This document shows, one piece after another, positions 9,301 through 39,098 of a stretch of DNA of 64,000 nucleotides. The translations under genes and the position numbers were made by a program. Source of the DNA: an uncultured Thermoleophilia bacterium (GTDB lineage: Bacteria > Actinomycetota > Thermoleophilia > UBA2241); the NCBI GenBank assembly GCA_963715985.1, contig CAVQSP010000014.1, forward strand, positions 192,001-256,000. The letters run 5' to 3'. The notes beneath the pieces were generated by a model. That model was not told the origin of the DNA, did not search any database, and worked only from the letters and a program-made list of their open reading frames with translations. The stretch's first letter is position 1, and each line of letters opens with the position of its first letter.

Positions 9301-9459
9301 ATGGCTACCTACGAGTTCATCTGTGAGAAGTGCGGCACCGACTTCGAGGTCACCTGCCACATGGACGAGCGCGAGGCCCAGGCGGTGTGCCCCAAGTGCG
9401 GCAGCCACAAGGTGCGGCAGAAGATCACCGCCGAGTTCTCCTCGCCGCGCCCGGACTGA
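9301..9459 (+). CDS. FmdB-family zinc-ribbon protein (52 aa; absent from the ORF track)
   Basis: GGAGG RBS; MATYEFICEKCG...VCPKCGS. Confidence 0.9.
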   Translation: MATYEFICEKCGTDFEVTCHMDEREAQAVCPKCGSHKVRQKITAEFSSPRPD

Positions 9460-9490
9460 CAGGCAGATCGTCGCCTCCGGTGGCGGTCTC

Positions 9491-9520
9491 GCGGCCGCCG
9501 GCGCTTGCGCCGGCGGCCGC
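9491..9520 (+). terminator. 14-bp inverted repeat downstream of the zinc-ribbon gene
   Basis: GCGGCCGCCGGCGC-TT-GCGCCGGCGGCCGC. Confidence 0.55.
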
Positions 9521-9675
9521 CGGTCACGGCGGACTTCACCCATCCGGTTTGTGGGTGTGGCGCGCCGGGTACCCATCCGGCAGCGCGCGCCCTCCTCAGG
9601 CGCGGCGCGCTGGACACGGAAGCCTTGGAGCCGGGCTCCCATCCCTCTCCCGGCCCCCAGAACGACTGGAGTGAC

Positions 9676-10188
9676 ATGGTACAGGTAGGCCAGGAAGCCC
9701 CGGAATTCGCCCTCGAGGGCGTGCTGGGCAAGGACTTCGTCGACGTCAAGCTCAGCGACTACAGGGGCAAGTGGGTGGTGCTCTTCTTCTATCCTCTCGA
9801 CTTCACGTTCATCTGCCCGACGGAGATCACGGGGTTCGCGAAGCGCAGGGCGGAGTTCGAGGCGCTCGGCGCCCAGGTCCTCGGCGCCAGCGTCGACAGC
9901 AAGTGGAGCCATCTCGCCTGGGTCGAGCGCGACCTCGGCGACCTCGGCTACCCGCTGCTCAGCGACTTCAAGCGCGAGACCGCCGTAGAGTACGGCGTAC
10001 TCCTTCCTCAGGGCATGGCGCTTCGCGGGACGTTCATCATCGACCCCGACGGCGTGCTCAAGTACGCCGCCGTGCACGACAACAACGTGGGCCGAAACAC
10101 CGACGAGACCCTGCGCGTGCTGCAGGCGCTGCAGACGGGCGAGAAGTGCCCTGTGGACTGGAGCCCCGGCGAGGCGACGCTGGGATAG
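9676..10188 (+). CDS. ahpC: Typical 2-Cys peroxiredoxin (AhpC/Prx1)
   Basis: FFYPLDFTFICPTE peroxidatic motif; GEKCPVDW resolving Cys. Confidence 0.95.
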   Translation: MVQVGQEAPEFALEGVLGKDFVDVKLSDYRGKWVVLFFYPLDFTFICPTEITGFAKRRAEFEALGAQVLGASVDSKWSHLAWVERDLGDLGYPLLSDFKRETAVEYGVLLPQGMALRGTFIIDPDGVLKYAAVHDNNVGRNTDETLRVLQALQTGEKCPVDWSPGEATLG

Positions 10189-10204
10189 CGGGCGAAGGAG
10201 AGAA

Positions 10205-10504
10205 ATGGCGACCATCGACGACTGGTTCGACGAGCGCACGCTGCTCGATCTGGTGCCGCCGCCGGTGTTCCTGCAGGGCGCATCCGCGGTGGAGAACGGT
10301 GCGGTGCGGATCCTCGAGCGCGACGACGAGCACCTGCGCAGCACCGTGGAGGATCGCGAGATCTACGAGGCGGAGTTCCATCTGGAAGGTGGACAGCTGG
10401 CGTGGTCCTGCACCTGCGGTGAGGCCGACGGGCACCCGTGCGAGCACCTGCTCGCGACGGCGCTCGCGACGTGGCCGGGCGAGGCCCCGGACCTGGACGA
10501 GTAG
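10205..10504 (+). CDS. Stand-alone SWIM zinc-finger protein
   Basis: WSCTC-x7-CEH motif; AAGGAG RBS. Confidence 0.8.
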   Translation: MATIDDWFDERTLLDLVPPPVFLQGASAVENGAVRILERDDEHLRSTVEDREIYEAEFHLEGGQLAWSCTCGEADGHPCEHLLATALATWPGEAPDLDE

Positions 10505-10563
10505 GCGAACGTCCGGCGGGCGCCCGAACCTGAGCGCCCGCCGGGCCGTGCTAGGCTCTGACC

Positions 10564-10797
10564 ATGCCCCTGTACGACTTCAGATGTGACGACTGCGGCG
10601 AGGTCTTCGAAGTGAGCGCCCCCTTCGCGGAGCTCGAGCAGCGGTCCGTGTGCCCGACGTGCGGCGGGCGCCACACCTCGCGCGTGTACGGTGCCGTGCT
10701 GCTCGGCGGCAAGCGCACGAGCGTCAAGCCCGAGAACTTCGTGCGTCCGCGCGGGCCGGTGACGCCGCAGGGCCCGGCCAAGCCGCGCAAGCCTTAG
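10564..10797 (+). CDS. FmdB-family zinc-ribbon protein
   Basis: MPLYDFRCDDCG...CPTCGG; TAGGCT 6 nt before ATG. Confidence 0.9.
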   Translation: MPLYDFRCDDCGEVFEVSAPFAELEQRSVCPTCGGRHTSRVYGAVLLGGKRTSVKPENFVRPRGPVTPQGPAKPRKP

Positions 10798-13523: not shown

Positions 13524-13704
13524 GACGACTCACGGTAGCGGCCGGACGTGCCGCGCACGAGGGTGACGAGGGTGGACGTTCACGTCGCCGGCGGCTCGCC
13601 CGTCTCCGGTGCTGGCAACGCGCGGGTCGGAGTGGGGACGGCGCACTGGTGGCTCCCCGATGCCTTGCGGGTACACTGAGGCGACGATGAAGGGGGGATG
13701 GACG

Positions 13705-14835
13705 ATGAACGAGGGAGCAGACGGGTCAGGAGGTGCCGGGCAGCCTCAGCGCGTGGATGGACCCACCGAGGAGGTCACGCTCGCGCGCGTCGTGGAGGAG
13801 TACAAGGTGCTGGTGGAGACGAGCGCCGCGTTCGCCGTCAGCACGGCGCTGGACGACACGCTCACGCTCATCACGCGGCTGGTCGCGGAGCGTCTCGACG
13901 TGGCCTGGTGCGACCTGTACGACTACGACGCGGAGGCCGACGAGTTCGTGGTCACGGCCTTCTCCCGGCAGCCAGACATGGACGCCGACACGTCCACGTG
14001 GCTCGGTATGCGCTACGACGCCGAGAACTGGCCGGACCTGTGGGAGTGCGTCGCCGAGCGGCGCGCCGCCATCCTCTACCGTGACGATCCCGACCTCCCG
14101 GCGGAGCAGCGCGCTCTCATGGACCAGTGGGGCGAGCTCGCCAACATCAGCGTGCCTCTCGTCTACAAGAACGAGGTCACCGGCCTCATCGACATCGGCG
14201 AGTGTCGCGCGATGCGTCGCTGGTCCGAGGACGACGTCCACGTAGTGCAGGCCATCGCCGACCAGGCCGCCATCGCCATCGCTAACGCGCGGGCGTACGC
14301 GCGGCTTGCCGAGCAGGCCGTCACCGACGAGCTCACCGGGCTCCTCAACTTCCGCCACTTCATGGAGCACCTGCGGCGCGAGGTCGCCAGGGCGCGCCGC
14401 TACGGCCAGGACGTCTCGGTGCTGGTCGTCGACCTGGACGGGTTCGGCCTGTTCAACCAGACGTTCGGCCGCGAGCAGGGCGACACCGTCCTCGTGGAGG
14501 TCGCCGACATCCTCCGCGAGGTGACGCGCGGCCAGGTGGACGTGGTCGCGCGCTACGCAGCCGACGAGTTCATCGTCATCCTGCCGCAGACGCGCGCCAA
14601 CGAGCCCTTGCCGCTGACCGCGCCGGTGGTCGCCGAGCGCATCCGTGAGGCCGTCGCGGCGCACCGCTTCAAGGGCGTGGGGGACGAGCGAGACGTAGCC
14701 ATGACCGCGAGTATCGGCGTCGCCGGCGTCGGGCTGGGCGGGTACTCGGCCGAGGAGCTGCTGAGCTGCGCGGACAAGGCCGCGTACCTCGCCAAGCACG
14801 ACGGCCGGGACCGCGTGGTGGTCTTCGGCGCGTAG
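13705..14835 (+). CDS. GAF + degenerate GGDEF domain protein
   Basis: GAF domain; TDELTGLLN; signature ARYAADEF; alternative start 13687. Confidence 0.9.
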   Translation: MNEGADGSGGAGQPQRVDGPTEEVTLARVVEEYKVLVETSAAFAVSTALDDTLTLITRLVAERLDVAWCDLYDYDAEADEFVVTAFSRQPDMDADTSTWLGMRYDAENWPDLWECVAERRAAILYRDDPDLPAEQRALMDQWGELANISVPLVYKNEVTGLIDIGECRAMRRWSEDDVHVVQAIADQAAIAIANARAYARLAEQAVTDELTGLLNFRHFMEHLRREVARARRYGQDVSVLVVDLDGFGLFNQTFGREQGDTVLVEVADILREVTRGQVDVVARYAADEFIVILPQTRANEPLPLTAPVVAERIREAVAAHRFKGVGDERDVAMTASIGVAGVGLGGYSAEELLSCADKAAYLAKHDGRDRVVVFGA

Positions 14836-14862
14836 GCCGGGCCGTCCTCGCGCACGCCCGGC

Positions 14863-15594
14863 TCAGCTCTCGGGCTCTTCCTCCCCCAGAGGGACGGTCG
14901 CCCGCGTGGGGATCGCGTAGTAGACGCTCACGAAGACGAACACGGCGATCGACGCCCAGGCGCTCACGAAGGACAGCCCGAAGGCGGCCAGGTACACGAC
15001 CGGGGCCACGGCGTACTGGCGCGTCACCGCCCTGATGGTCTCCGGGTGGACGTCCGGTTCCAGCAGGTGCCCCCCGCGACGCGCCCAGTACCAGAGCGCG
15101 TTGTAGCTGATCGCGATGTAGAGGGACACGACACAGTACACCTGTGCCGCCACGCGGCCTCCGGGATGGGTGAGGTGGCTGGCGAGGATCTCGGTGGTGA
15201 ACGGGATCACCACCACGCCCATCAGCACCAGGCCGTTGAGCAGCAGGAAGACGTGGTCCACGCGGCGGATGAGGCTGAAGATGTTGTGGTGGCTCGCCCA
15301 CATCACGAGGATCGTGAAGAAGGACATCAGGAAGGCCACGTAGACCGGCCACTGGGTGAGCAGCGCATGTCGCAGCCCTGCCGCGGTGGCCACCTTCTCA
15401 TAGGTGGGCACGGCGAGGGCGAACACCAGGAGCGTGACGGCGATGGCGAAGACCCCGTCGCTGAACGCCTCGACGCGGCTCGTCTCCCGCAGGAGACGCG
15501 TGGCCGTGCGCTGCGGGGAGGTGTCCTCGACCTCGAGCTCCTCGAGGTCACAGAAGGCGTCGTCCGCCGGGCGGTGGGGAGTGTCGGCGCTCAT
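14863..15594 (-). CDS. TMEM175-family potassium channel
   Basis: RVEAFSDGVFAIAVTLL, WASHH, IPFTT; about 6 TM helices. Confidence 0.9.
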   Translation of the reverse strand: MSADTPHRPADDAFCDLEELEVEDTSPQRTATRLLRETSRVEAFSDGVFAIAVTLLVFALAVPTYEKVATAAGLRHALLTQWPVYVAFLMSFFTILVMWASHHNIFSLIRRVDHVFLLLNGLVLMGVVVIPFTTEILASHLTHPGGRVAAQVYCVVSLYIAISYNALWYWARRGGHLLEPDVHPETIRAVTRQYAVAPVVYLAAFGLSFVSAWASIAVFVFVSVYYAIPTRATVPLGEEEPES

Positions 15595-15609
15595 GACGGG
15601 AGCGTACCA

Positions 15610-15649
15610 GATGGGGCGGCGGGCGCTCGCGAGCGCCCGCCGCCCCATC
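15610..15649. repeat. Perfect 40-bp palindrome with no spacer
   Basis: GATGGGGCGGCGGGCGCTCG|CGAGCGCCCGCCGCCCCATC. Confidence 0.95.
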
Positions 15650-15721
15650 CGTCCGCGGACCAAGCACCCCCCGCGCAGTGAAGAGGTCATCGAGCTGCTC
15701 GGTCTCGACTGGCCTGACCTC

Positions 15722-16660
15722 ATGCCGGGCTGGGAGCAACGCACGGCCGCGTGGGACGACGAAGACGAGCCGCGCACGCGCACGTTCGAGGACGACGTGC
15801 GTTTCCTCTCCGACCTCCAGGACACGGCGTACGCGCGAAGCAGCCCGATCGTGCGCGCCCGGACCTTCGCCGGGTATCCCGTACGCGCGGCCGGGGCGCC
15901 GCCGGCGTCGCTGTACGCCTTCTTCGGGGGCGACGTAGAGCTGCGCCCCGGGCAGACGGAGCTTCTGCGCGTGCTCGGGAGGGCGGCCGCCGTGGAGGGG
16001 TCGCGTCGGCTCGCCGACGAGCAGCGTGTCAAGGGTCTGGCTCAGCTGGAGTGCGCCATGGAGCGCACCGTGGCCACGCTCTCGAGCGCCTTGGGCGCGC
16101 GCGACCCGTACACCACCGGGCACGAGGCCCGTGTGGCCGCCCTGGCCACGGCCATCGGCCCGGAGACGGGCCTCTCCGGCGAGGAGCTGCGGCTGCTCGA
16201 TCTCGCCGCCACGGTGCACGACATCGGCAAGATCGTGGTGCCGCCCGAGTTCCTCAGCAAGCCCACGCGCCTCTCGCAGGCCGAGTTCGCCGTCATCAAG
16301 CAGCACTGCAGGGCCGGCGACGACCTTCTCCAGCCCGCGGCCCTGCCGGACAGGGTCATGGACGCGGTGTTGCAGCACCACGAACGGCTCGACGGCAGCG
16401 GGTACCCGCAGGGCCCCGGCGGTGACGAGATCGGCGTGTTCGGCCGCATCCTGGCCGTGGCCGACGTCACCGAGGCGATGTCGTCGGACCGGCCCTACCG
16501 GCCGGCGCTGGGTGTCGAACCGGCCCTGGCGGAGATCGAGCGCGGGCGCGGCACGCTCTTCGATCCCGCCGCCTGCGACGCCTGCCTGAGCCTGTTCCGC
16601 GAACAGGCCTTCGGCTTCCTGCAGGAGGCCGCGCTCAGCGGGCCGGCACGCGCACCCTGA
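15722..16660 (+). CDS. HD-GYP cyclic-dinucleotide phosphodiesterase, N-terminus possibly truncated; start uncertain
   Basis: RDPYTTGH, HDIGK, HHERLDGSGYP, AVADV, RPYRPA. Confidence 0.85.
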   Translation: MPGWEQRTAAWDDEDEPRTRTFEDDVRFLSDLQDTAYARSSPIVRARTFAGYPVRAAGAPPASLYAFFGGDVELRPGQTELLRVLGRAAAVEGSRRLADEQRVKGLAQLECAMERTVATLSSALGARDPYTTGHEARVAALATAIGPETGLSGEELRLLDLAATVHDIGKIVVPPEFLSKPTRLSQAEFAVIKQHCRAGDDLLQPAALPDRVMDAVLQHHERLDGSGYPQGPGGDEIGVFGRILAVADVTEAMSSDRPYRPALGVEPALAEIERGRGTLFDPAACDACLSLFREQAFGFLQEAALSGPARAP

Positions 16661-17657
16661 GGGCCCGCTCCACCAGCTCCACCGCCACCGGCACGTCGCC
16701 GAGTGCCTCCCCGTCCACGTCGAGCGGGAAGAGGCCCGCACGTGGCCGCCGGGCCGGCGGGTCGGCGGGCTCCATGGTGAGGGACCGGCACGAGAAGTGG
16801 CTCACGCCGGGCTCGTCGGTGTGCGTGCCTGCGTACACGGTGAGGAAGCGGCCCACGAGCCGCCAGCGCGTGCGCGTCTCGAACGCCACGACCTCCAGCA
16901 GGCCGTCGTCCGGCCGCGCCATGGGCGCGATGCGCATGCCGCCTCCGAACGTGGTGCCGTTGCACACGGCCACGGCGTGGCTGTCCAGGATGCGCTCCTC
17001 GTGGCCGCCGCCGGGGAGCCCGACCCGACAGCGGAGGCGGATGCGGCGGCACACGACGATGCCGCGAAGGGCGGCCTGGCCGTAGGCCACGCGGCCGCCC
17101 ACAAAGCGCGGGGCAGCGGCCGCGTACCGGTCCACGAGGCCGCCCACGCCGGCCGAGAGGACGTTGAGCCAGTAGCGCTCCACGGGGCGCCCGCCGGGGC
17201 CGGCGAAGCGGGCCACCCCGACGTCCACCGCGCGTTCGGCGCCGCCCGCGATGGCGGCGAGGCACGCCTCCACGCGCGGGGCGATGCCGAGCGTGTGGCC
17301 GAAGTCGGCGCCGGTCCCGGTGGCGATGAGGCCGAGGGTGGGGAGGAGGTCCGGGCCGGCGCCGGCGGCGCCGGACGGCGCGAGCCGCCGGCGCGCGCGC
17401 ATGACGCCGTCGGCGACATCGCTGAGCGTGCCGTCACCGCCGACGCTCACCAGCAGCGGGCGCCGCTCCAGGGCGGCGGTCTCGGCGAGGCCGGAGGCAG
17501 CGCCGGCGGATGCGGTCGCCGCCACGTCGACGGGGCCGACCGCCGCGCGCAACGCCTCGAGCACGTGCGGCAGGTCGCGGCCGGTGCGGCCGCGACCTGC
17601 GCTGGGATTCACGATGACGAGCGGGCGCCGCGCCTCTGTGCAGTCCGACGAAGGCAT
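16635..17657 (-). CDS. Diacylglycerol/lipid kinase family (YegS/BmrU-like)
   Basis: IVNPSAG, GGDGT, GTGADF, FGGGMRIAP, DGLLEV, LDVDGE. Confidence 0.92.
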   Translation of the reverse strand: MPSSDCTEARRPLVIVNPSAGRGRTGRDLPHVLEALRAAVGPVDVAATASAGAASGLAETAALERRPLLVSVGGDGTLSDVADGVMRARRRLAPSGAAGAGPDLLPTLGLIATGTGADFGHTLGIAPRVEACLAAIAGGAERAVDVGVARFAGPGGRPVERYWLNVLSAGVGGLVDRYAAAAPRFVGGRVAYGQAALRGIVVCRRIRLRCRVGLPGGGHEERILDSHAVAVCNGTTFGGGMRIAPMARPDDGLLEVVAFETRTRWRLVGRFLTVYAGTHTDEPGVSHFSCRSLTMEPADPPARRPRAGLFPLDVDGEALGDVPVAVELVERALRVRVPAR

Positions 17658-17838
17658 GTGACGGACGCTACCAGACGGCGCCCCTCGCGTCAGGGGACGG
17701 TCTGCGCCGGCTCACGCGCGGGCCGGCGCGGGCGTCCGCGGGGCCGTGGCGCTCTCTCCATTCCGGCCGCCTCGCGACTCCGGCCGTGCAGGGATTCCGT
17801 GCTGCGGCCCCAAATAGGCACGGGATGTCTGAGGCGAG

Positions 17839-18447
17839 TTGCAGAGCGAGGTGGAGCATCCGCACGCGGTGGCGCGCGTCGAAGCGATGAGCGATGGCGT
17901 GTTCGCCATCGCGATCACGCTGCTCAGTCTGCAGCTGGCGATCCCGCTCCGCAGCGACCTCGGCGCCGCCCTCGTCGAGCTGGTCCCCGACTTCTTCGCC
18001 TTCGCGCTGAGCTTCGCGGTCATCGGCTCGTACTGGGTGTCCCACCACAGGCTGTTCGCGGCCGTGGTCCGCTACGACCGGCGTCTCGTCTGGCTGAACC
18101 TCCTGATGCTCTTCTTCATCGTCCTGGTGCCGTTCACGACCTCGGTCGTCTCCGAGCACGGTAACGAGCCTCTGGGCGTGCTCGTGTACGCGGGCTCTCT
18201 CATCGGCGCGGGGCTGGCGAGCGCCGCCCTCACCGCGTACATCTTCGTGGGCCATCGCATGTGCGCGGCGTCCGTGACGTCGCGCCGCGTGCGCTATGCC
18301 CTGGTGCGGAGCCTGGTGGTGCCGGCCTACTTCGCCGCCTCGCTACTGCTCCTGCTCATCCCCGGCGCCGCCGGGGACGTCACCATGACGTGGGTCGGCA
18401 TCCCGCTCGTGACGTTCTTCGTGGCGCGGCACTACCGCGAGGTCTGA
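17839..18447 (+). CDS. Second TMEM175-family channel
   Basis: RVEAMSDGVFAIAITLL, YWVSHH, VPFTT. Confidence 0.88.
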   Translation: MQSEVEHPHAVARVEAMSDGVFAIAITLLSLQLAIPLRSDLGAALVELVPDFFAFALSFAVIGSYWVSHHRLFAAVVRYDRRLVWLNLLMLFFIVLVPFTTSVVSEHGNEPLGVLVYAGSLIGAGLASAALTAYIFVGHRMCAASVTSRRVRYALVRSLVVPAYFAASLLLLLIPGAAGDVTMTWVGIPLVTFFVARHYREV

Positions 18448-18591
18448 CGGGCTCTTCGCGTCGTCTCGTCGCGGCGGCGCGAACTTCGCCCAAGCTGGGC
18501 CGCCCTGTTTGCCGAGATTCGCGCCTCTGGCGGGGGGCGGAGGCTGGTGCTAAGAATGACGTTCGACCCCCTCGATCTGGAGGCTGACTGC

Positions 18592-20046
18592 ATGACGGCC
18601 ATGGAACGACCGCCGCTCGAGCCGCTTGAGCCGGCGTTCACCTTTCGGTATCACTCGACCGAGCAGCTCGACCGCCTGAAGCAGGCGACCCTCGACATCC
18701 TTGAGACCACCGGCGTGCGCTTCCAGAGCGAGAAGGCTCTGGACATCCTCGCGGAGGCGGGCGCGGTAGTGGACCGCGAGAGGCAGGTCGCCAAGTTCCC
18801 GCCGGAGCTGGTGCTCGAGGCGATGGCGAAGGCGCCGCGGCGCTTCGGCCTCGGCGCCCGCGACGCCGGCTGCGACATCCCCGTCGGGGACGGCAAGACC
18901 TACTGCACGACCGACGGCTCCGGCACCGAGATCATCGACTTCGACACGCGTCAACGGCGCCTGTCGACGAAGGCCGATGTGGCCGACGTCACGCGCCTCC
19001 AGGACGCGCTCTCGAGCATCGCCTTCTGGTGGCCGACGGTCGGCGCCGGCGACTGCGGCGAGACGGCACAGCTGCATGAGCTGGACGCGGGCTGGAACAA
19101 CACGGTCAAGCACCTGCAGGGGTTCGTGCAGGGCGAGCGCGCCGCCCGCTACGCCGTCGAGATGGCGACCGTCGTCTCCGGCGGCGCCGAGGAGCTGCGC
19201 CGCCGGCCGGTGCTGAGCGACCTCATCGGCACCATCTCCCCGCTGGCGATCGACAAGGACGGGATCGAGGCGGCACTCGTCTTCGCCGAGGCCGGCGTGC
19301 CCGTCTGCTGGGTGACGGCGCCGACGCTCGGCACGACGGCGCCGGCGACGAAGGCCGGCGCCTACGCGCTCGGCTCCGCCGAGCTGGTCGCCGGCACCGT
19401 CGCGCTCCAGCTCGCCAGCCCCGGCGCCCCGGTGCTGCACTTCATGATGCAGAGCTGGGCCGATCCGCGCACCGGCGAGTTCGTGAGCTTCCCCCAGGAC
19501 GGCCGCGTGCGGGCCCTCGCCACGGAGCTGGCGCACCACTGGGGCGTCCCGGCCCAGTCCGCCGCCTGCGGCACCGACTCGCCGGTCCCCGGCACCTGGC
19601 AGGCCGGGGTCGAAGAGGCGATGGACTTCGTGCAGGCCGCCCAGGAGGGCTCCGACCTGCTGCCGAGCATCGGCCTGGTGAACGTGTACACGCTCTTCTA
19701 TCCGGAGCACCTCATCCTCGGCGACGACATCTACCGTCGCGCCCGCTACGCGGTCATGGACATCGGCTTCGACGACGAGTCGCTCGCGCTCGAGGCGATC
19801 GCCGACGTCGGGCCCGGAGGGCACTACCTCGGCCACAAGCACACGCGCCGGCACATGCGCCAGGCGGTGACACCGGCGATCACCCACCAGCCCGGCCCGG
19901 GGGGCGGGTTCCGCGACCCCGTCGAGGTCGCCCGCGAGCGCGCCGAGGAGCTGTGGCGCGACTACCGGCCGGAGCCTCTCGAGGCGGACAAGGCGGCGGA
20001 GCTCACGAGGATCCTCGCGGCCGCCGACGCCGAGCTGCTCGGCTGA
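18592..20046 (+). CDS. MttB-superfamily (trimethylamine:corrinoid methyltransferase-like), non-pyrrolysine
   Basis: ATLDILETTGVRF, ISPLAID, APATKAG, VGPGGHYLGHKHT; no internal TAG. Confidence 0.9.
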   Translation: MTAMERPPLEPLEPAFTFRYHSTEQLDRLKQATLDILETTGVRFQSEKALDILAEAGAVVDRERQVAKFPPELVLEAMAKAPRRFGLGARDAGCDIPVGDGKTYCTTDGSGTEIIDFDTRQRRLSTKADVADVTRLQDALSSIAFWWPTVGAGDCGETAQLHELDAGWNNTVKHLQGFVQGERAARYAVEMATVVSGGAEELRRRPVLSDLIGTISPLAIDKDGIEAALVFAEAGVPVCWVTAPTLGTTAPATKAGAYALGSAELVAGTVALQLASPGAPVLHFMMQSWADPRTGEFVSFPQDGRVRALATELAHHWGVPAQSAACGTDSPVPGTWQAGVEEAMDFVQAAQEGSDLLPSIGLVNVYTLFYPEHLILGDDIYRRARYAVMDIGFDDESLALEAIADVGPGGHYLGHKHTRRHMRQAVTPAITHQPGPGGGFRDPVEVARERAEELWRDYRPEPLEADKAAELTRILAAADAELLG

Positions 20047-26560: not shown

Positions 26561-28631
26561 TCAGTCGTACAGGGCGAGCAGGCGTCCGACCGCGCCGCGG
26601 AGGTGCTCGACCGCCTCCGGCGGGGCCAGCAGGCGCGCCTGATCGGCGAAGCGCAGGAGGTACGAGGTGAGCCAGCCCTCGTCCACGTACGGCTGTTCGG
26701 CGAGGCACGACCCGTCCCCCAGCCTGCGCACGGGCTGGCGTTCCTCGACCCAGCGGGTCACGAGGGGGCTGTACCACACCGAGGCCCGTTTGGGGGCGTA
26801 GACGCGCGAGGTGGGGATGCCCTCGCGGCGGTACAGCTCCAGCTGGACGTCGTCTCGCGGCACGAACGTCTCGTCCAGCAGCTCGGCGCTCTTGGTGGTC
26901 GAGACCCGGAACACCCGTCGCCCGTCCGCGCGGCGGCACCAGCACACGTAGTACCTGTCGCCGCGCTCACGGCTCATGAAGTACGGCTCGACGGTACGTA
27001 CTGTGAGCTCGGGGGTTCCTTCCTTCCAGTATTCGATGCGGAGCAGCCGGTTGTGAGCGATGGCGGCGTTGATGGCATCGAGCACGACGTCGTCGGGACG
27101 CACCGGGTCACTGGCCTGGATGGTGGGGGGCGCGCCTCTGCGCACCGCGTGGATCTTCTGCCCGAGCGCTCTCCAGGGCGGTGCCGGTGGTGGAGGGCAG
27201 CTGGCCACCCACCAGGTCGATGGCGAGCAGGATGGCGTCCGCCTGCAAGGGTGAGAGACGCGCCGGCCGCGAGAGCGTGGGCCCTTCCAGGTCGCACGTC
27301 ACGTGGAGCTTGCCGCGGCCCTTGAACTCCGCGTACAGCACGGTCCCGCCGCCCACGTAGCCCACGTCGTTCAGCACGCGGACGTCTTCTCTGAGCTGGT
27401 CCCGCGTCATGCCCAGCGCGGCCCTGATCTCGCTCACGTCCAGGTCCGCCTCGTTCTGCCCGCAGCTCGTGAGCAGGTAGGTGGCGAGCGTACTGAGGCG
27501 GGTGAAGCGATCGACCTCCACGTGACCTTCATCGGCGTGCCTGCGTCTGCGCCGTGCCGGTGCCTCGTCCTCGGCCGGCGCGGCCGCCGTGTCGCCGGCG
27601 TCGGGTGCGGGGGCGCCGAAGGCCGCCTCGAGCGCGCCCAGCTGCTCGCGCAGACGCGCGCGCAGCTCGGCGGGCTCCAGCAGTTCGGCGGCATCGGCGA
27701 GATTCAGCACCCAGGACAGCAGCGGCCGGGGGTCGGCGTAGTCGGTGGTGTAGACGATGCCGCCGTCCGGCCGGCGCTCAACGCTGCCGCAGTGCGACCA
27801 GTGGGCCTCTACCCACCAGGCCATGGTGGGGCCGACGCGGACCCGCGCCGTGCCACGGACGGCGGCGAGGCGCCAGGCAGGGCGGTCGCGGTACGCCTCC
27901 AGGTCGAAGTCCTCGGGGCGCACGAAGTCGTGCAGCCGCTTGGTCGCGTGGACGACGCGTGAGTGGATGCGAGACAGGCGGAAGGTCCGCACGTCGTCGC
28001 GCAGGTGGCAACGGCCGATGAGGTACCACTCGCCGGCCACGAGTTGCAGCCCGTACGGGTCCACCATGCGCTCCATCTCCTCATCTCGGGCGATGGTGTA
28101 GTAGGTGAAACGCACCGACTTGCGATCGTCCACGGCGGCTTGCAGCTTGGGCAGCAGGCCGAGCGGCTCCGACGTCTCGCGGGCGACCGCGAGCGGGGGA
28201 GGTTCCGCCTCGGCCAGGAGCTCGGGACGGTCCTGGGCGAGGCTGAGCAGCGCGAGACGGAGCGGCTGTGAATAGGCGAACGCGCCGTCGAGCACGGCGA
28301 GGCAGGCGGCGAGCGCGGTGACCTCCTCGAGGTCGAGGTGCACCGAGGTGAGGTAGTAGGCGTCGCGCTGCAGGCGGTAGACGTCGCCGTCGTCGCCCGG
28401 CTCTGCGTCGACGGCGATGCCCAGCTCGCCGAGCTCGGCGCGATCCTCCTGGAAGCGCTTCTTGAACGCCTCGTCGGTCATGAGCGCGTAGCCCTCCACG
28501 CACATGCGGATCTCCGCGGCGCTCACGGGCCGCCCCGGGCGGGACAGCAGGAAGGTGACGAGCGAGAGCCGCCGGATGTTCTGGTCGGTGTCCTTGGGCT
28601 GGCGCTTCTCGGGCTCCTGCGGCGGGCTCAT
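26561..28631 (-). CDS. Fused PafB-PafC-like double HTH-WYL-WCX regulator; +1 frameshift near 27160
   Basis: EAFKKRFQEDRAEL (PafB HTH), RMVDPYGL..WYLIG..RTFRLSRI; then TRDQLREDV..RPARLSPLQA (PafC HTH) and RTVEPY..YYVCWC..RVFRVS. Confidence 0.88.
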
Positions 28632-28653
28632 GGGCGCGCTCCGGCGTCGGTGG

Positions 28654-28689
28654 TGAGGCACCGGCGCCGCGTACGGCGCCGGTGCCTCA
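28654..28689. promoter_or_regulatory. 16-bp inverted repeat overlapping the putative pafBC -10 (TAGCAT, 28689-28694, minus); may instead terminate the MttB operon
   Basis: TGAGGCACCGGCGCCG-CGTA-CGGCGCCGGTGCCTCA. Confidence 0.55.
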
Positions 28690-28836: not shown

Positions 28837-30300
28837 CTACCGTAGCTCAGTCTCACGGGCGGCTGCGGCGATGATGGCGTCGAACTCGGCCCCCAGATCC
28901 GCCGGGAAGGGCACGGCGTCGGCGGCGAGGATCTCCGCCACCTTCTCCTGCGCCTTCTCCGTGGTGCTCTTGCCGCCGGCGTTCTGCCAGGCCTCGTACG
29001 TGCCGGTCTCGCCGAGCGTGGCCTGCCACAGCTCGCGCACGTGCCTGCGCGTGTGGTTGTCGAACAGGTAGTTGCCGTTGAAGCCCATCTTCTTGATCAG
29101 GTCCACGGCGAGGGTCTCTTCGTTGACCTCGATGCCGCGCAGGATGCGCTTCACCATGCCGAGGATCTCGTTGTCCACGACCATGTTCTCGAGGCAGAGG
29201 ATGCGGGAGCCGTCCAGCAGGCCGGTGCCGAAGGTCACGTCGGCGCCGTTGCTGTACGCCATGAACATCGCGAGCGCGTTCTCGTAGGCACTCTGGATGC
29301 CCGGTTCCTTGGCCGTGGTGGCCCCGGCGCCATACCACGCCGGTACGCCGTAGAAGTCGGCCATGTGGCCCTCACAGGCGCGCAGCAGCATGGCCTCCGG
29401 CGAGTTGCTGGCGTAGGCGCCCGAGTCCATGTACATCGCCGTCGGGCCGCCGCCGTGGATGACGGGGGCACCCGGGTGGGCCAGCTGCACGAGCGTTGCG
29501 CCGCTCACGAACTCGGCGTTGGTCATCACCGCGGAGCCGGCGATGGTGATGGGGCCGGTCGCCCCGAGGATGGGCATGGGGTAGAAGCTCACCGGGATGC
29601 CGGCCTCGGCCAGCACCAGGGCCAGGTCCATGCCGAAGCGCTCCTGGTGGAGCGGGCTCACAGTGCAGATGATGGTGGTGAACATGGGCCGGCGCCTGAG
29701 CTCCTCCGTGCCGCCGGCCATCGCCTCGGCCATCCTGATCAGGCTGCGCGCCTCCCAGTCCTCCTTGATCGAGACGACGATGCTGTGCTTCTCGCTGTTG
29801 CGCACGCAGGCGTCGAACTCGTGCAGCACGCGCGTCTCCGGCGGGCAGTCCTGCGCGCTCACGACGGCGCTCGTCGCACTCACGTTGTCGAGCGCCTGCA
29901 CCACCTTGGCGCAGTTCGCCAGATCTTCTTTGCGGGACACCCGCACCTCACCGGTGACCGGGTCGCGGTAGGAGACGCCGCAGCCGTCCGAACTGATGTA
30001 GACGTGCTCGCCGTCCAGCGGCAGGTCGTACTCGGGGTTGCGCGCGCCCAGGGTGAAGACGGGGGTCAGGGTGCCGAGCGCCTTCTCGACCACGGCGGCT
30101 GGGACCTTGGCCACCGTCGTCTCGCGGTCCACCGTGGCCCCGTTGGCCTCGAGGATGTCCAGCGCCTTCTGCGAGTGGTACTTGACGCCTACGCTCTCGA
30201 TGACGTCCAGCGTGGCCTCGTGGATCTGGCGCACGTCTTCGGGGGAGAGCAGGCCGAGCCTCACACGCTCGCCCACGTAGCACTTGTCCGCGTAGGTCAT
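28837..30300 (-). CDS. MttB-superfamily methyltransferase, non-pyrrolysine (paralogue 2)
   Basis: IHEATLDVIESVGV, VSPLHQE, GATGPITIAG, AKEPGIQSAYE; AAAGGAG RBS. Confidence 0.92.
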   Translation of the reverse strand: MTYADKCYVGERVRLGLLSPEDVRQIHEATLDVIESVGVKYHSQKALDILEANGATVDRETTVAKVPAAVVEKALGTLTPVFTLGARNPEYDLPLDGEHVYISSDGCGVSYRDPVTGEVRVSRKEDLANCAKVVQALDNVSATSAVVSAQDCPPETRVLHEFDACVRNSEKHSIVVSIKEDWEARSLIRMAEAMAGGTEELRRRPMFTTIICTVSPLHQERFGMDLALVLAEAGIPVSFYPMPILGATGPITIAGSAVMTNAEFVSGATLVQLAHPGAPVIHGGGPTAMYMDSGAYASNSPEAMLLRACEGHMADFYGVPAWYGAGATTAKEPGIQSAYENALAMFMAYSNGADVTFGTGLLDGSRILCLENMVVDNEILGMVKRILRGIEVNEETLAVDLIKKMGFNGNYLFDNHTRRHVRELWQATLGETGTYEAWQNAGGKSTTEKAQEKVAEILAADAVPFPADLGAEFDAIIAAAARETELR

Positions 30301-30372
30301 GGGACTCCTTTCGCTCGTGCAGGGTGCTCCGCCGTGCGCACCGCGCAACGCCGTGAGCTACGCCCGCTCGTT

Positions 30373-31830
30373 TCAGAAGCGGCCGGTCTCGACCGCGGCG
30401 ATGATGTCGTCGAACTCGCGACCCAGCTCCTCGGGGAGCTCGGGCGCGGGAGTGGCGAGCAGGCCGTCGGCGACGGCCCGCGCCTTGTCTTCCAGTCGCG
30501 GGCTGCCCGCGCCGGTCCACCCGTCGTAGGTGCCGGCCTCTCCGAGGCGCGCCTGCCAGAGCTCGCGCACGTGTGCGCGGGTGTGGCCGTCGAAGAGGTA
30601 GTCGCCCTTGAACCCCATCTTCTTGATGAGGTCCACGGCCAGCGTCTCGCGCTCCACGGTCACGCCGCGCAGAAGGCGCGTGACCACGCCGAACACCTCG
30701 TCGGCGATGACGAGCTCCTCGAGGCTCATCTGCTGGACGCTGTCCAGGAGCCCGGCGCCGAAGAGGAAGTCCGCGCCGGCGGAGAGCTCGAGCACCATGC
30801 CCAGCGTGTTCTCGTAGGCGCTCTGGGCCTCGGGCTGCTTGGCCTTGGTGCCGCCCCAGCCGAGGCCCGCGGGCAGGCCCCAGAAGCGCGCCATCTGCGC
30901 CTGCGCGGCGCGCAGGAGCAGCGCCTCGGGGACGTTGGCGAAGTAGGCGCCGGTGCGCATGTAGAGCGCCGTGGGGCCGCCGGCGTGGACGAGCTTGGCG
31001 CCGGGACAGGCGAGCTGCACGGCGGTGATGGCGGCGAGGATCTCCGCCGCCCCTACCACCGCCGTCCCCGCCGGCGTGACCGGCGCCGTGGCGCCGAGGA
31101 TGGGCATGGGGTAGAGCATCATGGGGATGCCGGCCTCGGCGAGCTCGAAGGCGAGCTCCATGCCGAAGCGCTCCTGGTGGAGCGGGCTCACCGTGCACAG
31201 GATGACGGAGAAGGTCGGGCGGGCGTGGAGCTCGGCGGTGCCGCCGGCCACGGCCTCCGCCATGCGGATGAGCGGCCGCGCCTCGGTGGCGTCCTTGATG
31301 CTCACCACGATGCTGTGCTTGCGCGACGCCCGCATGCAGGCGTCGAACTCGTGCAGCACGCGGCTCTCCTCCGGCGTGTCCTGGGCCGAGACGAGGGCCG
31401 AGGTGGCCGAGAGGTTGGGCAGGCCGTCCACGACGCGGGCCGCGGCGTACACGTCCTGCTTGACGCTCGGCCGCACCGAGCCGTCGGCCTCGCGCACGAA
31501 CGTCGCGCAGCCGTCGGAGGTGAGGTAGGCGTGCTCGCCGTCCACAGGAAGGTCGAACTCGGGCGTGCGCCCGCCCAGGGTGAAGCCACTTGGCAGCGTG
31601 GCGAGCGCCTCCTCCACGGCGCTCGCCGGGATGCGCGCCACCGTGGTGTCGCGGTCCACCGTGGCCCCGTGCTCCTCGAGCACGTCCAGGGCACGGTCGT
31701 TGTGGAACATGACGCCGGTCTCGGCGAGCACGTCCAGCGCCGCCTCGTGGATGCGCTCCACGTCGGCCTCGGCGAGGATGCGCAACGGGCGCCGCCGTCC
31801 GATGTACCGTCCGTCGGCGTGTGAGATCAT
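30373..31830 (-). CDS. MttB-superfamily methyltransferase, non-pyrrolysine (paralogue 3)
   Basis: IHEAALDVLAETGV, VSPLHQE, GATAPVTPAG, AKQPEAQSAYE; ATGA overlap with racemase stop. Confidence 0.92.
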   Translation of the reverse strand: MISHADGRYIGRRRPLRILAEADVERIHEAALDVLAETGVMFHNDRALDVLEEHGATVDRDTTVARIPASAVEEALATLPSGFTLGGRTPEFDLPVDGEHAYLTSDGCATFVREADGSVRPSVKQDVYAAARVVDGLPNLSATSALVSAQDTPEESRVLHEFDACMRASRKHSIVVSIKDATEARPLIRMAEAVAGGTAELHARPTFSVILCTVSPLHQERFGMELAFELAEAGIPMMLYPMPILGATAPVTPAGTAVVGAAEILAAITAVQLACPGAKLVHAGGPTALYMRTGAYFANVPEALLLRAAQAQMARFWGLPAGLGWGGTKAKQPEAQSAYENTLGMVLELSAGADFLFGAGLLDSVQQMSLEELVIADEVFGVVTRLLRGVTVERETLAVDLIKKMGFKGDYLFDGHTRAHVRELWQARLGEAGTYDGWTGAGSPRLEDKARAVADGLLATPAPELPEELGREFDDIIAAVETGRF

Positions 31831-32930
31831 GCGTCTCCTTTCGGGACGGCCGGCGCGGTGGCCGGCGCAGCTCCCCCGCGTGCACGTACTCGAGGTCGAC
31901 ATAGGGGGAGGTCACGGCGCGTACCAGCGCCTCGTAGTCGGCCGCGAAGGCGACCTCGTCGCCCATCGCAAGCCGGCTCGGGAGTGATCAGCACGCAGAC
32001 GTCGCTGGAGGCGCCGGCGAGGTACGCGCCGGGCAGGAGCGGCCGCAGGCCGCGAGGCTCCGTGTCCCTGCGTCCGACGGCCACGAGCGCGTACCAGGCG
32101 TCTTCGGCCGGCAGCTCCACGTCGGGTTCGTGGCCGAAAGCGTCCAGGCCGCCGGGACCCTCCGGCGCCGGCGGCCTGAGGTGACACTCCAGCACTTCGG
32201 CAGTGAGCACCGGGTCGACGCGCTCGATGCCGGCCAACGGCGCCGCGCTCACGAAGTCGTACCCGTACACAGGGCCGCCGCCCGCGCGCACCTCGGTGGA
32301 GAAGCGCGGCCTGTAACCCTCGAGGTGTTGCACCACACAGGTGCCGCCGAGGCTCAGCACCGGTTCGGCGGCACAGCTCCCGGCGCAGGCCGCGAGGACG
32401 TCCTCGGCCTGATGGAACAACGCCTGCGACGGCATCTGCCCGGAGAGGCAGGCGAAGTTGACGCTGAGGCCGGCGAGCTCCACGCCCGGCGTGGCGGCCA
32501 CTTCGGCCGCGAGCGCCTGGGCGGCGTCCGGCTGCACACCTTCGCGGCGGTCGCCGAGGTCCACGGTGAGCAGGATCCGGACGGGCGCGCCGCCGGCGTG
32601 CTCACCGAGACCGCGGGCGGTGCCGGCGTCGGCGAGCAGCACGCGGTCGGCCACATGCGCCGCCGTCTCGAGCTCGTGGCGTTGCGGCGCGCGGATGAGG
32701 GTGAGAGGGCCGAGGCCGGCCGCCGCGAGCTGCTCCAGTGCGGGCAGGCGGCTGTCGGCGAGGCCGGCGGCGCCGGCCTCGAGCATCACGCGCCCGACCT
32801 GGGGTTCGCCATCGACGCACTTGGTCACGGCGGCCAGAGAGAGGCCGTGGCCGAGCAGCCCGGCGGCGAGCCGCCGGGTGGCCTCGGCCACCGCGTCCAG
32901 GTCGACAGTCAGCCGCGGACCGGCCGCCAT
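31827..32930 (-). CDS. Fold-type III PLP racemase, ornithine-racemase (Orr)-like; two compensating indels near 31970 and 31875
   Basis: AVTKC (PLP Lys), LADSR, VDLGDRREG, NFACLSG, GASSD; family-like C-terminus GDEVAFAADYEALVRAVTSPYV lies in the shifted frame. Confidence 0.85.
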   Translation of the reverse strand: MAAGPRLTVDLDAVAEATRRLAAGLLGHGLSLAAVTKCVDGEPQVGRVMLEAGAAGLADSRLPALEQLAAAGLGPLTLIRAPQRHELETAAHVADRVLLADAGTARGLGEHAGGAPVRILLTVDLGDRREGVQPDAAQALAAEVAATPGVELAGLSVNFACLSGQMPSQALFHQAEDVLAACAGSCAAEPVLSLGGTCVVQHLEGYRPRFSTEVRAGGGPVYGYDFVSAAPLAGIERVDPVLTAEVLECHLRPPAPEGPGGLDAFGHEPDVELPAEDAWYALVAVGRRDTEPRGLRPLLPGAYLAGASSDVCVLITPEPACDGRRGRLRGRLRGAGTRRDLPLCRPRVRARGGAAPATAPAVPKGDA

Positions 32931-32934
32931 CGGC

Positions 32935-33157
32935 CTAACCTGCGACGGGCCGGTCGCACCGCGCCCGAGAGTCGTGCTGGGTACCAGGCATCAACGCCCT
33001 CCACCTCGTGTGGTCGTGCTGCAGGGCGGCCCTCCGGGTGCGGCAGTACGACGTGTGAGGTGTCGTGGCCGGTGCCCGGAGGCCGCAGCGTGGTCCGGCC
33101 GTCGCAAGCGGCGTCCCGGCGGGGACGGCGGCGACGGTGCGGGACGAGGAGGAGGGC
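32935..33157 (-). promoter_or_regulatory. Candidate structured cis-regulatory leader with SD sequestration and an 18-aa uORF (32935..32991)
   Basis: 33144-33157 pairs with 32996-33009 (13/14); inner helices 33026-33038/33075-33086 and 33048-33052/33062-33066. Confidence 0.45.
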
Positions 33158-33301
33158 TTCTAAAAGTCGTGGAACTTGCCGCCCGTGAAGGCGGAGCGGC
33201 GACGATCGTGGGGCCTGACGTCAACTACGCGGGACACGCGTCTCCCGGTGCCGGTGGGTCAAAGCACGGGCAGTATACTTCGGCGGTCCGCACGCACACA
33301 A

Positions 33302-34786
33302 ATGGGGGAGACGGTGGCCTTCTGCGACGTCTACCTGACCGTCTGCGACGGCCGCCTGTGTCTGGACGGCGCCGACCTCGCGGACCTGGCGGCCGGCGTG
33401 GAGACCCCGTTCTTCGTATTCAGCGAGCGTCGCCTGCGCGACAACGTGGCCGCCGTGCGCGGCGCCTTCGCGGCGAGGCATCCGCGCAGCGAGGTGTTCT
33501 TCGCCAGCAAGGCGTGCTCCAATCTCTGGTTGCTGGACGTCGTGCGCGACGCCGGCGCGAGCGTGGAGGTCAACTCGGGCGGAGAGCTCGACAAGGCGCT
33601 GCGCGCCGGCTTCGCCCCGTCGCAGATCGTGTTCAACGGCGTCGCCAAGACGCGCACCGAGATCGCCGCTGCCGTGCGCCTGGGCGTGCGCGCCCTGCTC
33701 GTGGACTCGCTCTGCGAGCTGGACCGCATCGCCGCGGTGGCGGCCGAGCTCGGTACGATTGCCGAAGTGGCCCCGCGCATCGACGTCCACGTGCCGGCGC
33801 TCACGCATCCCGGCCTGGAGACGGCCTTCGGCGGCAAGGCCGGCATCGACCGTGACGACGCGGCGGAGGCGTTCCGGCGCGCCGCCGCCGATCCGTGGCT
33901 GGACCCGGCGGGCCTGCACCTGCATGTGGGCTCGCAGATCGCGAGCGCCGCCCCGTACCGGCAGGCCGTGGGGACGGCCCTCGACCTCGTGGCCGAGGTC
34001 GAGGCCGCGGCCGGCCTGCGCTTGCGCTTCCTCGACGCCGGCGGCGGGTTCGCCGTGCCGTATGCGGAGGCCGGCATCCCGTCGGCGGCCGGCGCGTTCA
34101 CGGCGGCGCCCGACTCCTTTGCTCCCGAGGTCGCCGCTCCCGGGGCCGGCGCTGCAGCCACCGTGCCGGGGCCGGCCACGCCGCCGGCCGGGCACTACTT
34201 CGCCAGTGAGGTGACGCTGGACGAATATGCGGCCGCCGTCTGCGCCCCGCTGCTGGCCCGGCGCCCGGACCTGGCGCTGTTCCTCGAGCCCGGCCGCTCC
34301 ATCGCCGCGACGACGGGCGTGCTGGTGACGCGAGTGGAGAGCGAGAAGACCAAGCGCGTGCGCGACGGGGCCGGCCGGGTGGTGGGGGAGCAGCGCTGGC
34401 TCACCATCGACGCCGGCTTCAACACGCTGCTCGAGCACACCAACTATGCGTGGTACTTCCGTGCCGCTGTGGCCGGCCGGGCCGGCGAGCGCTCGGACAC
34501 TCCGTTCCGGCTCGCCGGCCCGCTCTGCGACGGCGGCGACGTGTACGCCGGCGACGGCGCCTCACCGTTTCGCCTGTTCCCGGCCGGCACGGGGCCGGGC
34601 GACCTCGTGGTGTTCCGGGACGTGGGCGGCTACACGCTCGAGATGATGAACGACTACAACGCCCGTCCCCGCGCCGCCGCGTACGCCGTGACCTCTGCGG
34701 GCGAGGTCGTGGAGGTCCGGCGGCGAGAGACGAGCGATGACCTCATGCGTCTGGACCGCGTCCCGCGGCGCGACGGCGCACAGTGA
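33302..34786 (+). CDS. Fold-type III PLP decarboxylase (LysA/ODC family), most like D-ornithine/D-lysine decarboxylase
   Basis: TPFFVFSE, FFASKACS, QIVFNGVAK, HLHVGSQ, GGG, EPGR, LAGPLCDGGD, YNARPR; TATACT at 33274-33279 upstream. Confidence 0.85.
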   Translation: MGETVAFCDVYLTVCDGRLCLDGADLADLAAGVETPFFVFSERRLRDNVAAVRGAFAARHPRSEVFFASKACSNLWLLDVVRDAGASVEVNSGGELDKALRAGFAPSQIVFNGVAKTRTEIAAAVRLGVRALLVDSLCELDRIAAVAAELGTIAEVAPRIDVHVPALTHPGLETAFGGKAGIDRDDAAEAFRRAAADPWLDPAGLHLHVGSQIASAAPYRQAVGTALDLVAEVEAAAGLRLRFLDAGGGFAVPYAEAGIPSAAGAFTAAPDSFAPEVAAPGAGAAATVPGPATPPAGHYFASEVTLDEYAAAVCAPLLARRPDLALFLEPGRSIAATTGVLVTRVESEKTKRVRDGAGRVVGEQRWLTIDAGFNTLLEHTNYAWYFRAAVAGRAGERSDTPFRLAGPLCDGGDVYAGDGASPFRLFPAGTGPGDLVVFRDVGGYTLEMMNDYNARPRAAAYAVTSAGEVVEVRRRETSDDLMRLDRVPRRDGAQ

Positions 34787-38116: not shown

Positions 38117-38155
38117 AGGGACGCCTCAGGGGTGTGCCCTGCGCAAGGAGATCGT

Positions 38156-39098
38156 ATGGAACGGGCGGGCAGCATCACGGAACTCATCGGGCGCACCCCC
38201 TTGGTGCGCCTCAACCGCATCTCCGACGAGACCGGCGGCGAGGTGCTCGGCAAGCTCGAGTCGATGAACCCCGGCGGCAGCGTCAAGGACCGCATCGGCG
38301 TCGCGATGATCGCGGCCGCCGAGCGGGACGGGCGCATCGCTCCGGGCCGGACGACCCTCATCGAGCCGACCAGCGGCAACACCGGCATCGCCCTCGCCAT
38401 GGTGGCGGCCGCGCGCGGGTACGACATGGTGCTCACCATGCCCGACACCATGAGCGCGGAGCGGCGCACCATCCTCCAGGCGTACGGCGCGCGCCTCGTG
38501 CTCACCCCGGGCGCGGACGGCATGGCCGGAGCCGTGCAGAAGGCGCTGGCCCTGGCCGCCGAGACTGAGGACTCGTTCGTGCCGCAGCAGTTCGAGAACC
38601 CGGCCAACCCCGAGATCCACCGGCTCACCACGGCCGAGGAGATCTGGGCCGACACCGGTGGCGAGGTGGACGCGTTCGTGGCCGGCGTCGGGACCGGCGG
38701 CACCCTGACGGGGGTCGGCGACGGTGCTCCGCGAGCGCCGCCCCGGCGTGCTCATCGTCGCCGTGGAGCCGTCTGACTCCGCCGTGCTCTCCGGCGGACG
38801 GCCGGGGGCGCATCGCATCCAGGGCATCGGCGCCGGCTTCGTACCCAAGGTCCTGGACACCGGCATCTACGACAAGGTGATGCGGGTGAGCGGTGACGAC
38901 GCCTCCGCCACGGCGCGCGACCTCGCGCGCCACGAAGGCATTCTCGTGGGCATCTCGGCCGGCGCCAACGTGTGGGCCGCCGGCCAGGTCGCGCGCCGTC
39001 CCGAGATGCAGGGCAAGGTCATCGTCACCGTGCTCTGCGACACCGGTGAGCGCTATCTGTCCACGCCGCTCTTCGGCGACCTGGGCGGAGGGGAGTGA
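38156..39098 (+). CDS. cysK: Cysteine synthase A; +1 frameshift near 38720
   Basis: [37 protein letters not shown]; shifted frame [10 protein letters not shown]...DTGERYLST. Confidence 0.95.

Follow-up and report, generated by a model that had tools for sequence, protein, structure and literature searches.

A racemase, a DOKDC-like decarboxylase and paired non-pyrrolysine MttB genes in an uncultured Thermoleophilia family: a candidate unit for methylated basic amino acids

Non-pyrrolysine MttB proteins number thousands, and few of their substrates are known. The characterised members are MtgB (glycine betaine), MtcB (carnitine), MtpB (proline betaine), MtyB (gamma-butyrobetaine) and MthB (phosphocholine), and they take one methyl group from a quaternary amine; to our knowledge the known substrates are all small betaines or choline derivatives. 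In Salmonella enterica, the racemase OrnR (STM2358) and the D-ornithine/D-lysine decarboxylase DOKDC (STM2360) lie together in a small enterobacterial operon with transporter homologues, the physiological role of which is given as unknown in the available text of PMC13397332. Here we describe a locus in which relatives of both systems adjoin. It lies in a 64-kb stretch of DNA (hereafter the window, positions 192001-256000 of contig C14, G+C approximately 72%) from an uncultured Thermoleophilia genome of 4.35 Mb in 22 contigs (88.8% complete, 7.3% contamination).

The locus has four genes (Table 1). A pyridoxal phosphate (PLP)-dependent racemase gene is followed on the minus strand by MttB1 and then MttB2, and a decarboxylase gene on the plus strand is divergent from the racemase, 371 bp from its start. 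The TGA stop codon of the racemase (31829-31827) overlaps the ATG of MttB1 (31830-31828). The racemase and the two MttB genes form one operon, translationally coupled and predicted to be co-transcribed, with the DOKDC-like gene transcribed divergently. An earlier note on this DNA had described these four genes and the ATGA overlap, and both are present (the overlap at 31830-31827); it had also likened the racemase and decarboxylase to the Salmonella pair, which agrees with the OrnR-DOKDC operon as set out in the available text of PMC13397332. We tentatively read the four genes as one lineage-specific catabolic unit of a methylotrophic wetland family, in which all four may act in a single pathway on a basic amino acid methylated in its side chain or on the diamine derived from it, although we would put this reading somewhat short of an even chance.

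The decarboxylase, the racemase and the two MttB proteins

The closest solved relative of the decarboxylase is the D-ornithine/D-lysine decarboxylase 6n2h (E 3.6e-85), and the best diaminopimelate (DAP) decarboxylase follows at 1e-54. In bit scores, 6n2h and five further DOKDC sequences reach 285-290 in comparison with 189.5 for the best DAP decarboxylase (3n2b). No DAP, ornithine or arginine decarboxylase of solved structure comes as close as these six. The DokD model NF052544 ranks first in NCBIfam with 345.8 bits, about half of its cut-off of 700, and the lysA model TIGR01048 gives 310.5 bits, above its cut-off of 297.9. The alignment to 6n2h spans the whole protein except for an Ala/Pro/Gly-rich low-complexity loop insertion of approximately 36-45 residues (about residues 255-301, window ~34064-34213), which is absent from most homologues and partly present in one of them (P0012).

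The motifs TPFFVFSE, FFASKACS, QIVFNGV, AWYF and LAGPLCDGGD are all found in the decarboxylase, and with the exception of WxF (AWYF here, DWFF there) they align residue for residue with 6n2h. In the same alignment CDGGD, YTLE and the tyrosine aligned with Y430 of DOKDC are kept; Y430 reportedly has a role in DOKDC, going by the title of one paper. LCDGGD and LLEHTNY stand at the places where the genome's own LysA has HCESGD and LRPMLY, that is, the protein has Cys-Asp and lacks the Arg-Pro of this LysA, the Arg being the one for the DAP carboxylate. Two further motifs, HVGSQ and NSGGE, are LysA/DAP decarboxylase-like, the DOKDC forms being HVGDQ and NSQYE. The true lysA of the genome (471.9 bits) lies on contig C13, where it adjoins hom (homoserine dehydrogenase). 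Taken together, the comparisons class the decarboxylase as DOKDC-like: by its sequence it is not a LysA, and it is not an equivalog of DOKDC either. The earlier note had quoted these motifs, had taken Cys-Asp as a departure from the Cys-Glu of LysA and had proposed a DOKDC-type enzyme, and on all three points the analysis agrees with it. It had also asked whether the gene could be the only lysA of the genome, and the lysA on C13 removes that ground for refuting its proposal.

The best and only NCBIfam match of the racemase is racem_Orr (NF040742), with 111.3 bits for the copy in the window and 137.2 bits for an intact orthologue (P0121); neither reaches the cut-off of 480 bits. Its relatives of solved structure are alanine racemases only, at E 3e-5 or worse. 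K37 (GVTKCVDG) and C161 (NFACLSGQ) are invariant among eight orthologues, and in the alignment with alanine racemase 1xqk the place of the Cys is taken by the Thr of HFAT. OrnR of Salmonella likewise has a PLP Lys and a catalytic Cys, the latter standing where alanine racemase has Thr (PMC13397332, available text). This identifies the protein, at the level of sequence, as an OrnR-like racemase in which the predicted catalytic Lys and Cys are kept.

The copy in the window is out of frame relative to all orthologues from 31979 to approximately 31872 (about 35 codons), with the reading frame still open. Public contigs from runs X2, X3 and X4 carry an additional C behind 31872 and are one base shorter at 31979; only these three runs cover the spot, a fourth aligned run having no cover there. 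Applying both differences in silico restores the C-terminus of the orthologues. The frame shift is an assembly error or a strain variant and not a dead gene in the population, a reading we adopt because other genes of the assembly are split in the same way. The racemase of the earlier note is thus present, but as a copy with two compensating single-base differences.

MttB1 and MttB2 both match PF06253 over their full length (cut-off 25 bits). Neither contains an in-frame stop or amber codon, the pyrrolysine position being Gly in MttB1 and Ala in MttB2, and both fall under the 525-bit cut-off of TIGR02369, the model for the pyrrolysine-type trimethylamine MttB (MttB2, 430.4 bits; MttB1, 384.3 bits). 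They are 58% identical and mutually closest among the 44 MttB open reading frames of the genome, the next paralogue being at most 39% identical; the description of them as closely related, non-pyrrolysine twins was correct. In a library of 1.84 billion representatives there is a full-length cluster at 61% identity (MttB2 type), whose named members are Thermoleophilia or Actinomycetota with one labelled Deltaproteobacteria, and the full-length cluster that comes after it shows 42%. Those MttB clusters outside the subfamily that are nearest to it, P0242 among them, have 36-42% identity. The pair is on these identities classed as an isolated subfamily.

MtgB (2qne, 9yce) and pyrrolysine MttB (7xcl) are similarly distant from the pair, at 193-226 bits each. 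In MtgB, Y97 and F356 are the cation-pi residues and R312 and H348 bind the carboxylate; R312 is conserved in the members of known function, all of which act on acidic quaternary amines (PMC13080624, available text). In a mapping counted by hand, MtgB Y97, R312, H348 and F356 correspond to G, G, F and V in MttB1. In MttB2, mapped at the last three of these positions, R312, H348 and F356 correspond to W, F and S, and an invariant Arg lies beside the last of these. None of the four glycine-betaine-binding residues of MtgB is therefore kept in MttB1, nor are the three mapped ones in MttB2. Both proteins, lacking R312, carry conserved aromatic residues, and each has conserved motifs of its own: the MttB1 orthologues carry W (47 of 55) or Y (7 of 55) in GLGWGG, and those of MttB2 the Trp of PAWYGAG (53 of 53) and the Arg of LLDGSR (52 of 52). 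At the H348 position, the orthologues of both proteins have Phe without exception. As their motifs are distinct, the two proteins are under separate constraint.

Conservation of the cluster and its possible function

A profile scan of species-representative genomes with the racemase alignment, which used clade-specific patterns, gave 64 loci, all titled as uncultured Thermoleophilia, Actinomycetes or Actinomycetota metagenome-assembled genomes (MAGs). The racemase, MttB1 and MttB2 are contiguous in 51 of the 53 loci with at least 3.3 kb downstream; of the remaining two, L124 has one MttB gene, about equally similar to both (70% and 62%), and L105 has none. The divergent DokD-like gene is found within 1.5 kb in 51 of the 56 loci with at least 1.8 kb upstream. 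In L089 it is 5 kb away, and L123, L126, L128 and L132 lack it. Fourteen congeners, which were fetched around the decarboxylase orthologue and overlap the 64 loci, have the same order wherever the contig reaches (11 with both MttB genes, two cut inside MttB1 and one cut inside the racemase). The ATGA junction is kept in 12 of 13 relatives and the 13th is frameshifted. Divergence over the loci is large, with racemases down to approximately 55-65% identity and DokD-like proteins to approximately 50-60%, and the spacers to the flanking genes are variable, in contrast to the cluster itself. A separate arrangement was seen in L134 (9212-10933), where the orthologous racemase is a short remnant, a racemase-like gene of 33-34% identity occupies the place of the decarboxylase and both MttB genes are kept.

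In a FastTree phylogeny of the racemases rooted with paralogues, from which L132 was left out, L105 is the first branch and L123, L126 and L128 form one derived clade. The position of L105 fits an older racemase-decarboxylase pair that later gained the MttB genes, but a loss in L105 is equally possible. When 401 genomes of the class were searched, 76 of the 79 that belong to the family had racemase matches at E<=1e-15, counting paralogues at 32-38% identity. Orthologue-grade racemases (at least 55% identity) are, among the matches listed, all in this family, with only weak matches in two others, and 16 genomes of other families gave no DokD-like match at E<=1e-40. In these searches the cluster was not found outside this one uncultured Thermoleophilia family. 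The linkage to MttB, whose conservation the earlier note had set as a check, is seen again in 51 of 53 related loci, but within a single family and not independently.

Paralogues of the racemase and the decarboxylase in the lineage have other neighbours. Racemase paralogues L137-L140 (46-54% identity) and L141 (34%) have no MttB or DokD gene within approximately 10 kb. There are two further DokD-like paralogue groups in unrelated contexts, also without MttB nearby: one on contig C10, which adjoins gyrBA, GntR and an aminotransferase-GcvT-SHMT frame, and a second group (L063-L069), which adjoins IscS, NifU, DsrE and sensor kinases. By this comparison, the pairing with MttB is specific to the orthologues described here. 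The C10 paralogue itself (L059 = G000:C10:33700-53600, locus 8575-15789) scores 343.6 bits with the DokD model and is flanked on one side by a GntR/FCD regulator and on the other by an open frame of 1391 codons with aminotransferase, GcvT and SHMT domains; the arrangement in genome G015 is likewise.

The coupling of the racemase to the MttB pair is specific and, within the family, old, and a shared substrate is the best single explanation for it. Both PLP enzymes need a free alpha-amino group, and the one known activity of non-pyrrolysine MttB proteins is the demethylation of quaternary amines, which together point to a basic amino acid, or a diamine, that is quaternary in its side chain. The substrate would thus be a basic amino acid that has its alpha-amino group free and its side-chain nitrogen methylated to the quaternary state. 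N-delta-trimethylornithine and N-epsilon-trimethyllysine are candidates, as is, beside or instead of them, the methylated diamine that would be left after decarboxylation. In the proposed scheme the MttB proteins would methylate corrinoid proteins encoded elsewhere in the genome, from which the methyl groups would go on to tetrahydrofolate; the racemase would yield the D-isomer and the D-specific decarboxylase would convert this to the diamine. The separately conserved pockets of MttB1 and MttB2 probably serve two forms of the compound, for example with and without the carboxylate, which we favour over a simple series from tri- to di- to monomethyl. The absence of R312 and the presence of an invariant Arg in MttB2 fit such a division, in which the form taken by one enzyme would have no carboxylate close by and the form taken by the other would have one. 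The 'stepwise' demethylation by the two MttB proteins put forward in the earlier note goes beyond the known chemistry of non-pyrrolysine MttB proteins. As a whole, the earlier interpretation is partly supported.

Several observations weigh against a common pathway. All recurrences are within one family and 20 kb of the flanks are syntenic too, so the conservation of the cluster may partly be inheritance. The modules separate, in that L123, L126, L128 and L132 have no DokD-like gene and L105 has no MttB genes. The genome has 89 PF06253 matches and at least 44 MttB open reading frames, and an MttB gene beside any given gene is therefore not rare. No corrinoid protein, methyl-corrinoid:tetrahydrofolate methyltransferase or conserved transporter was found in the cluster. 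Finally, the MtgB residues were mapped by counting by hand in alignments that phmmer made between distant sequences (E about 1e-56).

Several of these points lend themselves to an alternative, namely that two functionally separate modules have been joined by history. One would be an OrnR-DOKDC pair that, as proposed in Salmonella, takes ordinary L-ornithine or L-lysine through the D-isomer to putrescine or cadaverine; the other would be an MttB pair with an unrelated quaternary amine as its substrate, which came to lie behind the racemase by insertion and simply shares its transcript. We regard this as a serious possibility, though a doubtful one. The enterobacterial OrnR-DOKDC pair exists without any MttB (PMC13397332, as far as its available text goes). 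L105, first in the racemase tree, has the DokD-like gene and the racemase alone, and the derived clade of L123, L126 and L128 has lost the DokD-like gene and retained its MttB genes; the very large MttB expansion and the synteny of the whole region in the family would also suit two such modules. However, the four-base overlap of racemase and MttB1 is kept in nearly all relatives in which it was compared, the MttB pair follows this racemase in all but two of the 53 loci, it was found nowhere else when the library of 1.84 billion representatives was searched, and no linkage to MttB is seen for the remaining racemase and DokD-like paralogues in these genomes.

A different question, which is orthogonal to the shared pathway, to the two modules and to the LysA reading taken up below, is whether MttB1 and MttB2 assemble into a single heteromeric enzyme that acts on one substrate. 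The tandem paralogues stay together in 51 of 53 loci with a short spacer between them, and the single MttB of L124 could be a state from before the duplication. The pockets differ at conserved positions, though this is compatible with either reading, and we consider a heteromer unlikely. That the decarboxylase is instead a second DAP decarboxylase, paralogous to LysA, beside a housekeeping racemase and without any role in D-ornithine or D-lysine metabolism is highly improbable, since its score with TIGR01048, formally over the cut-off, and the label 'diaminopimelate decarboxylase' that public sources give to many homologues are set against a higher score with the DokD model, the lead of the six DOKDC sequences over every DAP decarboxylase, Cys-Asp in place of Cys-Glu, the lack of the Arg-Pro of the genome's LysA, the real lysA beside hom and an alr-like gene elsewhere (C13:390054).

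Returning to the four genes as one catabolic unit, the coupling of racemase and MttB gives a short list of substrates: methylated ornithine, methylated lysine and their diamines. A more specific proposal, that the operon breaks down N-delta,N-delta,N-delta-trimethylornithine, with N-epsilon-trimethyllysine as an alternative substrate, is conceivable but improbable. We found no literature linking MttB to OrnR, to DOKDC or to methylated ornithine or lysine. If trimethylornithine were the substrate, the MttB family would gain its first members that act on an amino acid quaternary in its side chain, and on the trimethyl-diamine formed from it by decarboxylation. The methyl groups would feed folate metabolism, the carbon skeleton would be disposed of as a diamine through the racemase and the D-specific decarboxylase, and aminolipid turnover would be tied to bacterial methylotrophy in peat. 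More generally, the pocket of this MttB subfamily differs from every characterised one, and a pathway of this kind would give the D-ornithine/D-lysine decarboxylase route a physiological context.

Surroundings of the cluster, assembly and methyl-transfer genes

The coordinates of the cluster are given in Table 1. The frame of MttB2 is open further upstream to a TTG at 30348, and that of the decarboxylase is open from 33176.

Table 1. Features of the four-gene cluster in the window
Feature	Position	Strand	Basis
MttB2, non-pyrrolysine MttB-superfamily corrinoid methyltransferase	28837-30300	-	PF06253 299.7 bits; 487 aa from ATG 30300
MttB1, non-pyrrolysine MttB-superfamily corrinoid methyltransferase	30373-31830	-	PF06253 283.7 bits; 485 aa
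OrnR-like PLP racemase, Cys/Lys type, first gene of the operon	31827-32930	-	PF01168 69.9 bits; 367 aa
Divergent intergenic region between racemase and decarboxylase, 371 bp, presumed promoters	32931-33301	.	gene coordinates
DokD-like fold-III PLP decarboxylase	33302-34786	+	PF02784 139.1 bits and PF00278 51.4 bits; 494 aa

No Rfam family was found at gathering thresholds in the 64-kb window. Between 28500 and 35100, the divergent region 32931-33301 included, no match to a sigma-70-like promoter was found, and there are three terminator-like matches, in comparison with 1.3 expected, and all are within coding sequences.

MttB2 is followed downstream by two PafB/PafC-like WYL regulators, a LarA-like gene and a GadC-like permease, and past the decarboxylase a convergent Amidase_6 gene is followed by an Rrf2/cysteine synthase/ThiF cluster. 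The WYL regulators, the LarA-like gene, the permease and Amidase_6 were considered as members of the unit and rejected, because their spacers are variable and the permease occurs in few loci only. The genes flanking the cluster look unrelated to it. A third, distant MttB paralogue is present in the window at 18448-20046 (+) (PF06253, 209 bits), directly following a TMEM175-like potassium-channel gene (17833-18447, +).

Three other genes were seen to be split between frames: a cysteine synthase (38132-39098, +), a PafC-like gene (26561-28661, -) and an alanine racemase (C13:390054-390691). Many of the MttB fragments in the genome sit in adjacent frames, and split matches also occur in related MAGs. 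Together these suggest frequent single-base indel errors in the assembly and in the related MAGs. The public contigs differ from the window by small indels at 33080-33153 in the divergent intergenic region (run X1), and one contig of run X3 has a compensating indel pair inside MttB2 at 29790-29796. These differences are strain variation or further assembly noise.

The partners that MttB proteins require are present elsewhere in the genome, which has 35 B12-binding matches, mostly open reading frames of approximately 210-250 aa, two RamA-type activases and four pterin-binding proteins. There is no B12-binding, RamA or pterin-binding match in the window. Nine MttB open reading frames of the genome have one in-frame TAG exactly at the pyrrolysine position (AG.X.DSK), examples being C3:52314-53561, C3:56551-57957 and C13:306720-308123, and a PylS C-terminal domain is encoded at C13:559328-560053 (316.5 bits, cut-off 178). 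This suggests that this Thermoleophilia probably decodes pyrrolysine. Elsewhere in the same genome (L060 = G000:C3:41000-60900, locus 7363-16982), methylamine methyltransferases again adjoin a fold-III decarboxylase, in an association unrelated to the first. This cluster contains an MtmB homologue without an amber codon, a corrinoid protein, a LysA-like fold-III decarboxylase whose lysA score of 296.9 bits falls just short of the cut-off, a TAG-containing MttB, an acetyl-CoA-synthetase-like gene and a second TAG-containing MttB.

Near-identical DNA is found in metagenome runs labelled as wetland, four of which hold at least half of the words; the match to a peat or wetland habitat is one of run labels and record titles. 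In a thawing permafrost mire, Actinobacteriota are described as versatile, actively expressing methylotrophs whose genes include pyrrolysine-encoding mttB (PMC10805028, available text). As the host lineage is among these peat methylotrophs, the substrate of the cluster would bear on the diversion of methyl groups from, or their supply to, methane production in wetlands.

Comparison with known systems

The decarboxylase has the same fold and overall architecture as LysA (TIGR01048) but is without its Cys-Glu and the Arg for the distal carboxylate. The resemblance to the Salmonella OrnR-DOKDC pair is closer. In both, a fold-III racemase of the Cys/Lys type adjoins a DOKDC-type decarboxylase, and the decarboxylase aligns full length with Salmonella DOKDC (6n2h), LAGPLCDGGD, FFASK and QIVFNGV being identical. 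However, the racemase and decarboxylase genes are divergent here and in one operon there, there are no conserved transporter genes here, and two MttB genes are coupled to the racemase. The scores with the models of the Salmonella-type equivalogs are low (345.8 of 700 bits for the decarboxylase and 111-137 of 480 for the racemase).

MttB1 and MttB2 are like the characterised non-pyrrolysine MttB proteins in belonging to the same Pfam family over their full length, in having no amber codon and in having partner proteins in the genome. They differ from these in that no corrinoid protein or MtgA-type gene adjoins them, and in the coupling of their genes to those of PLP enzymes that act on basic amino acids.

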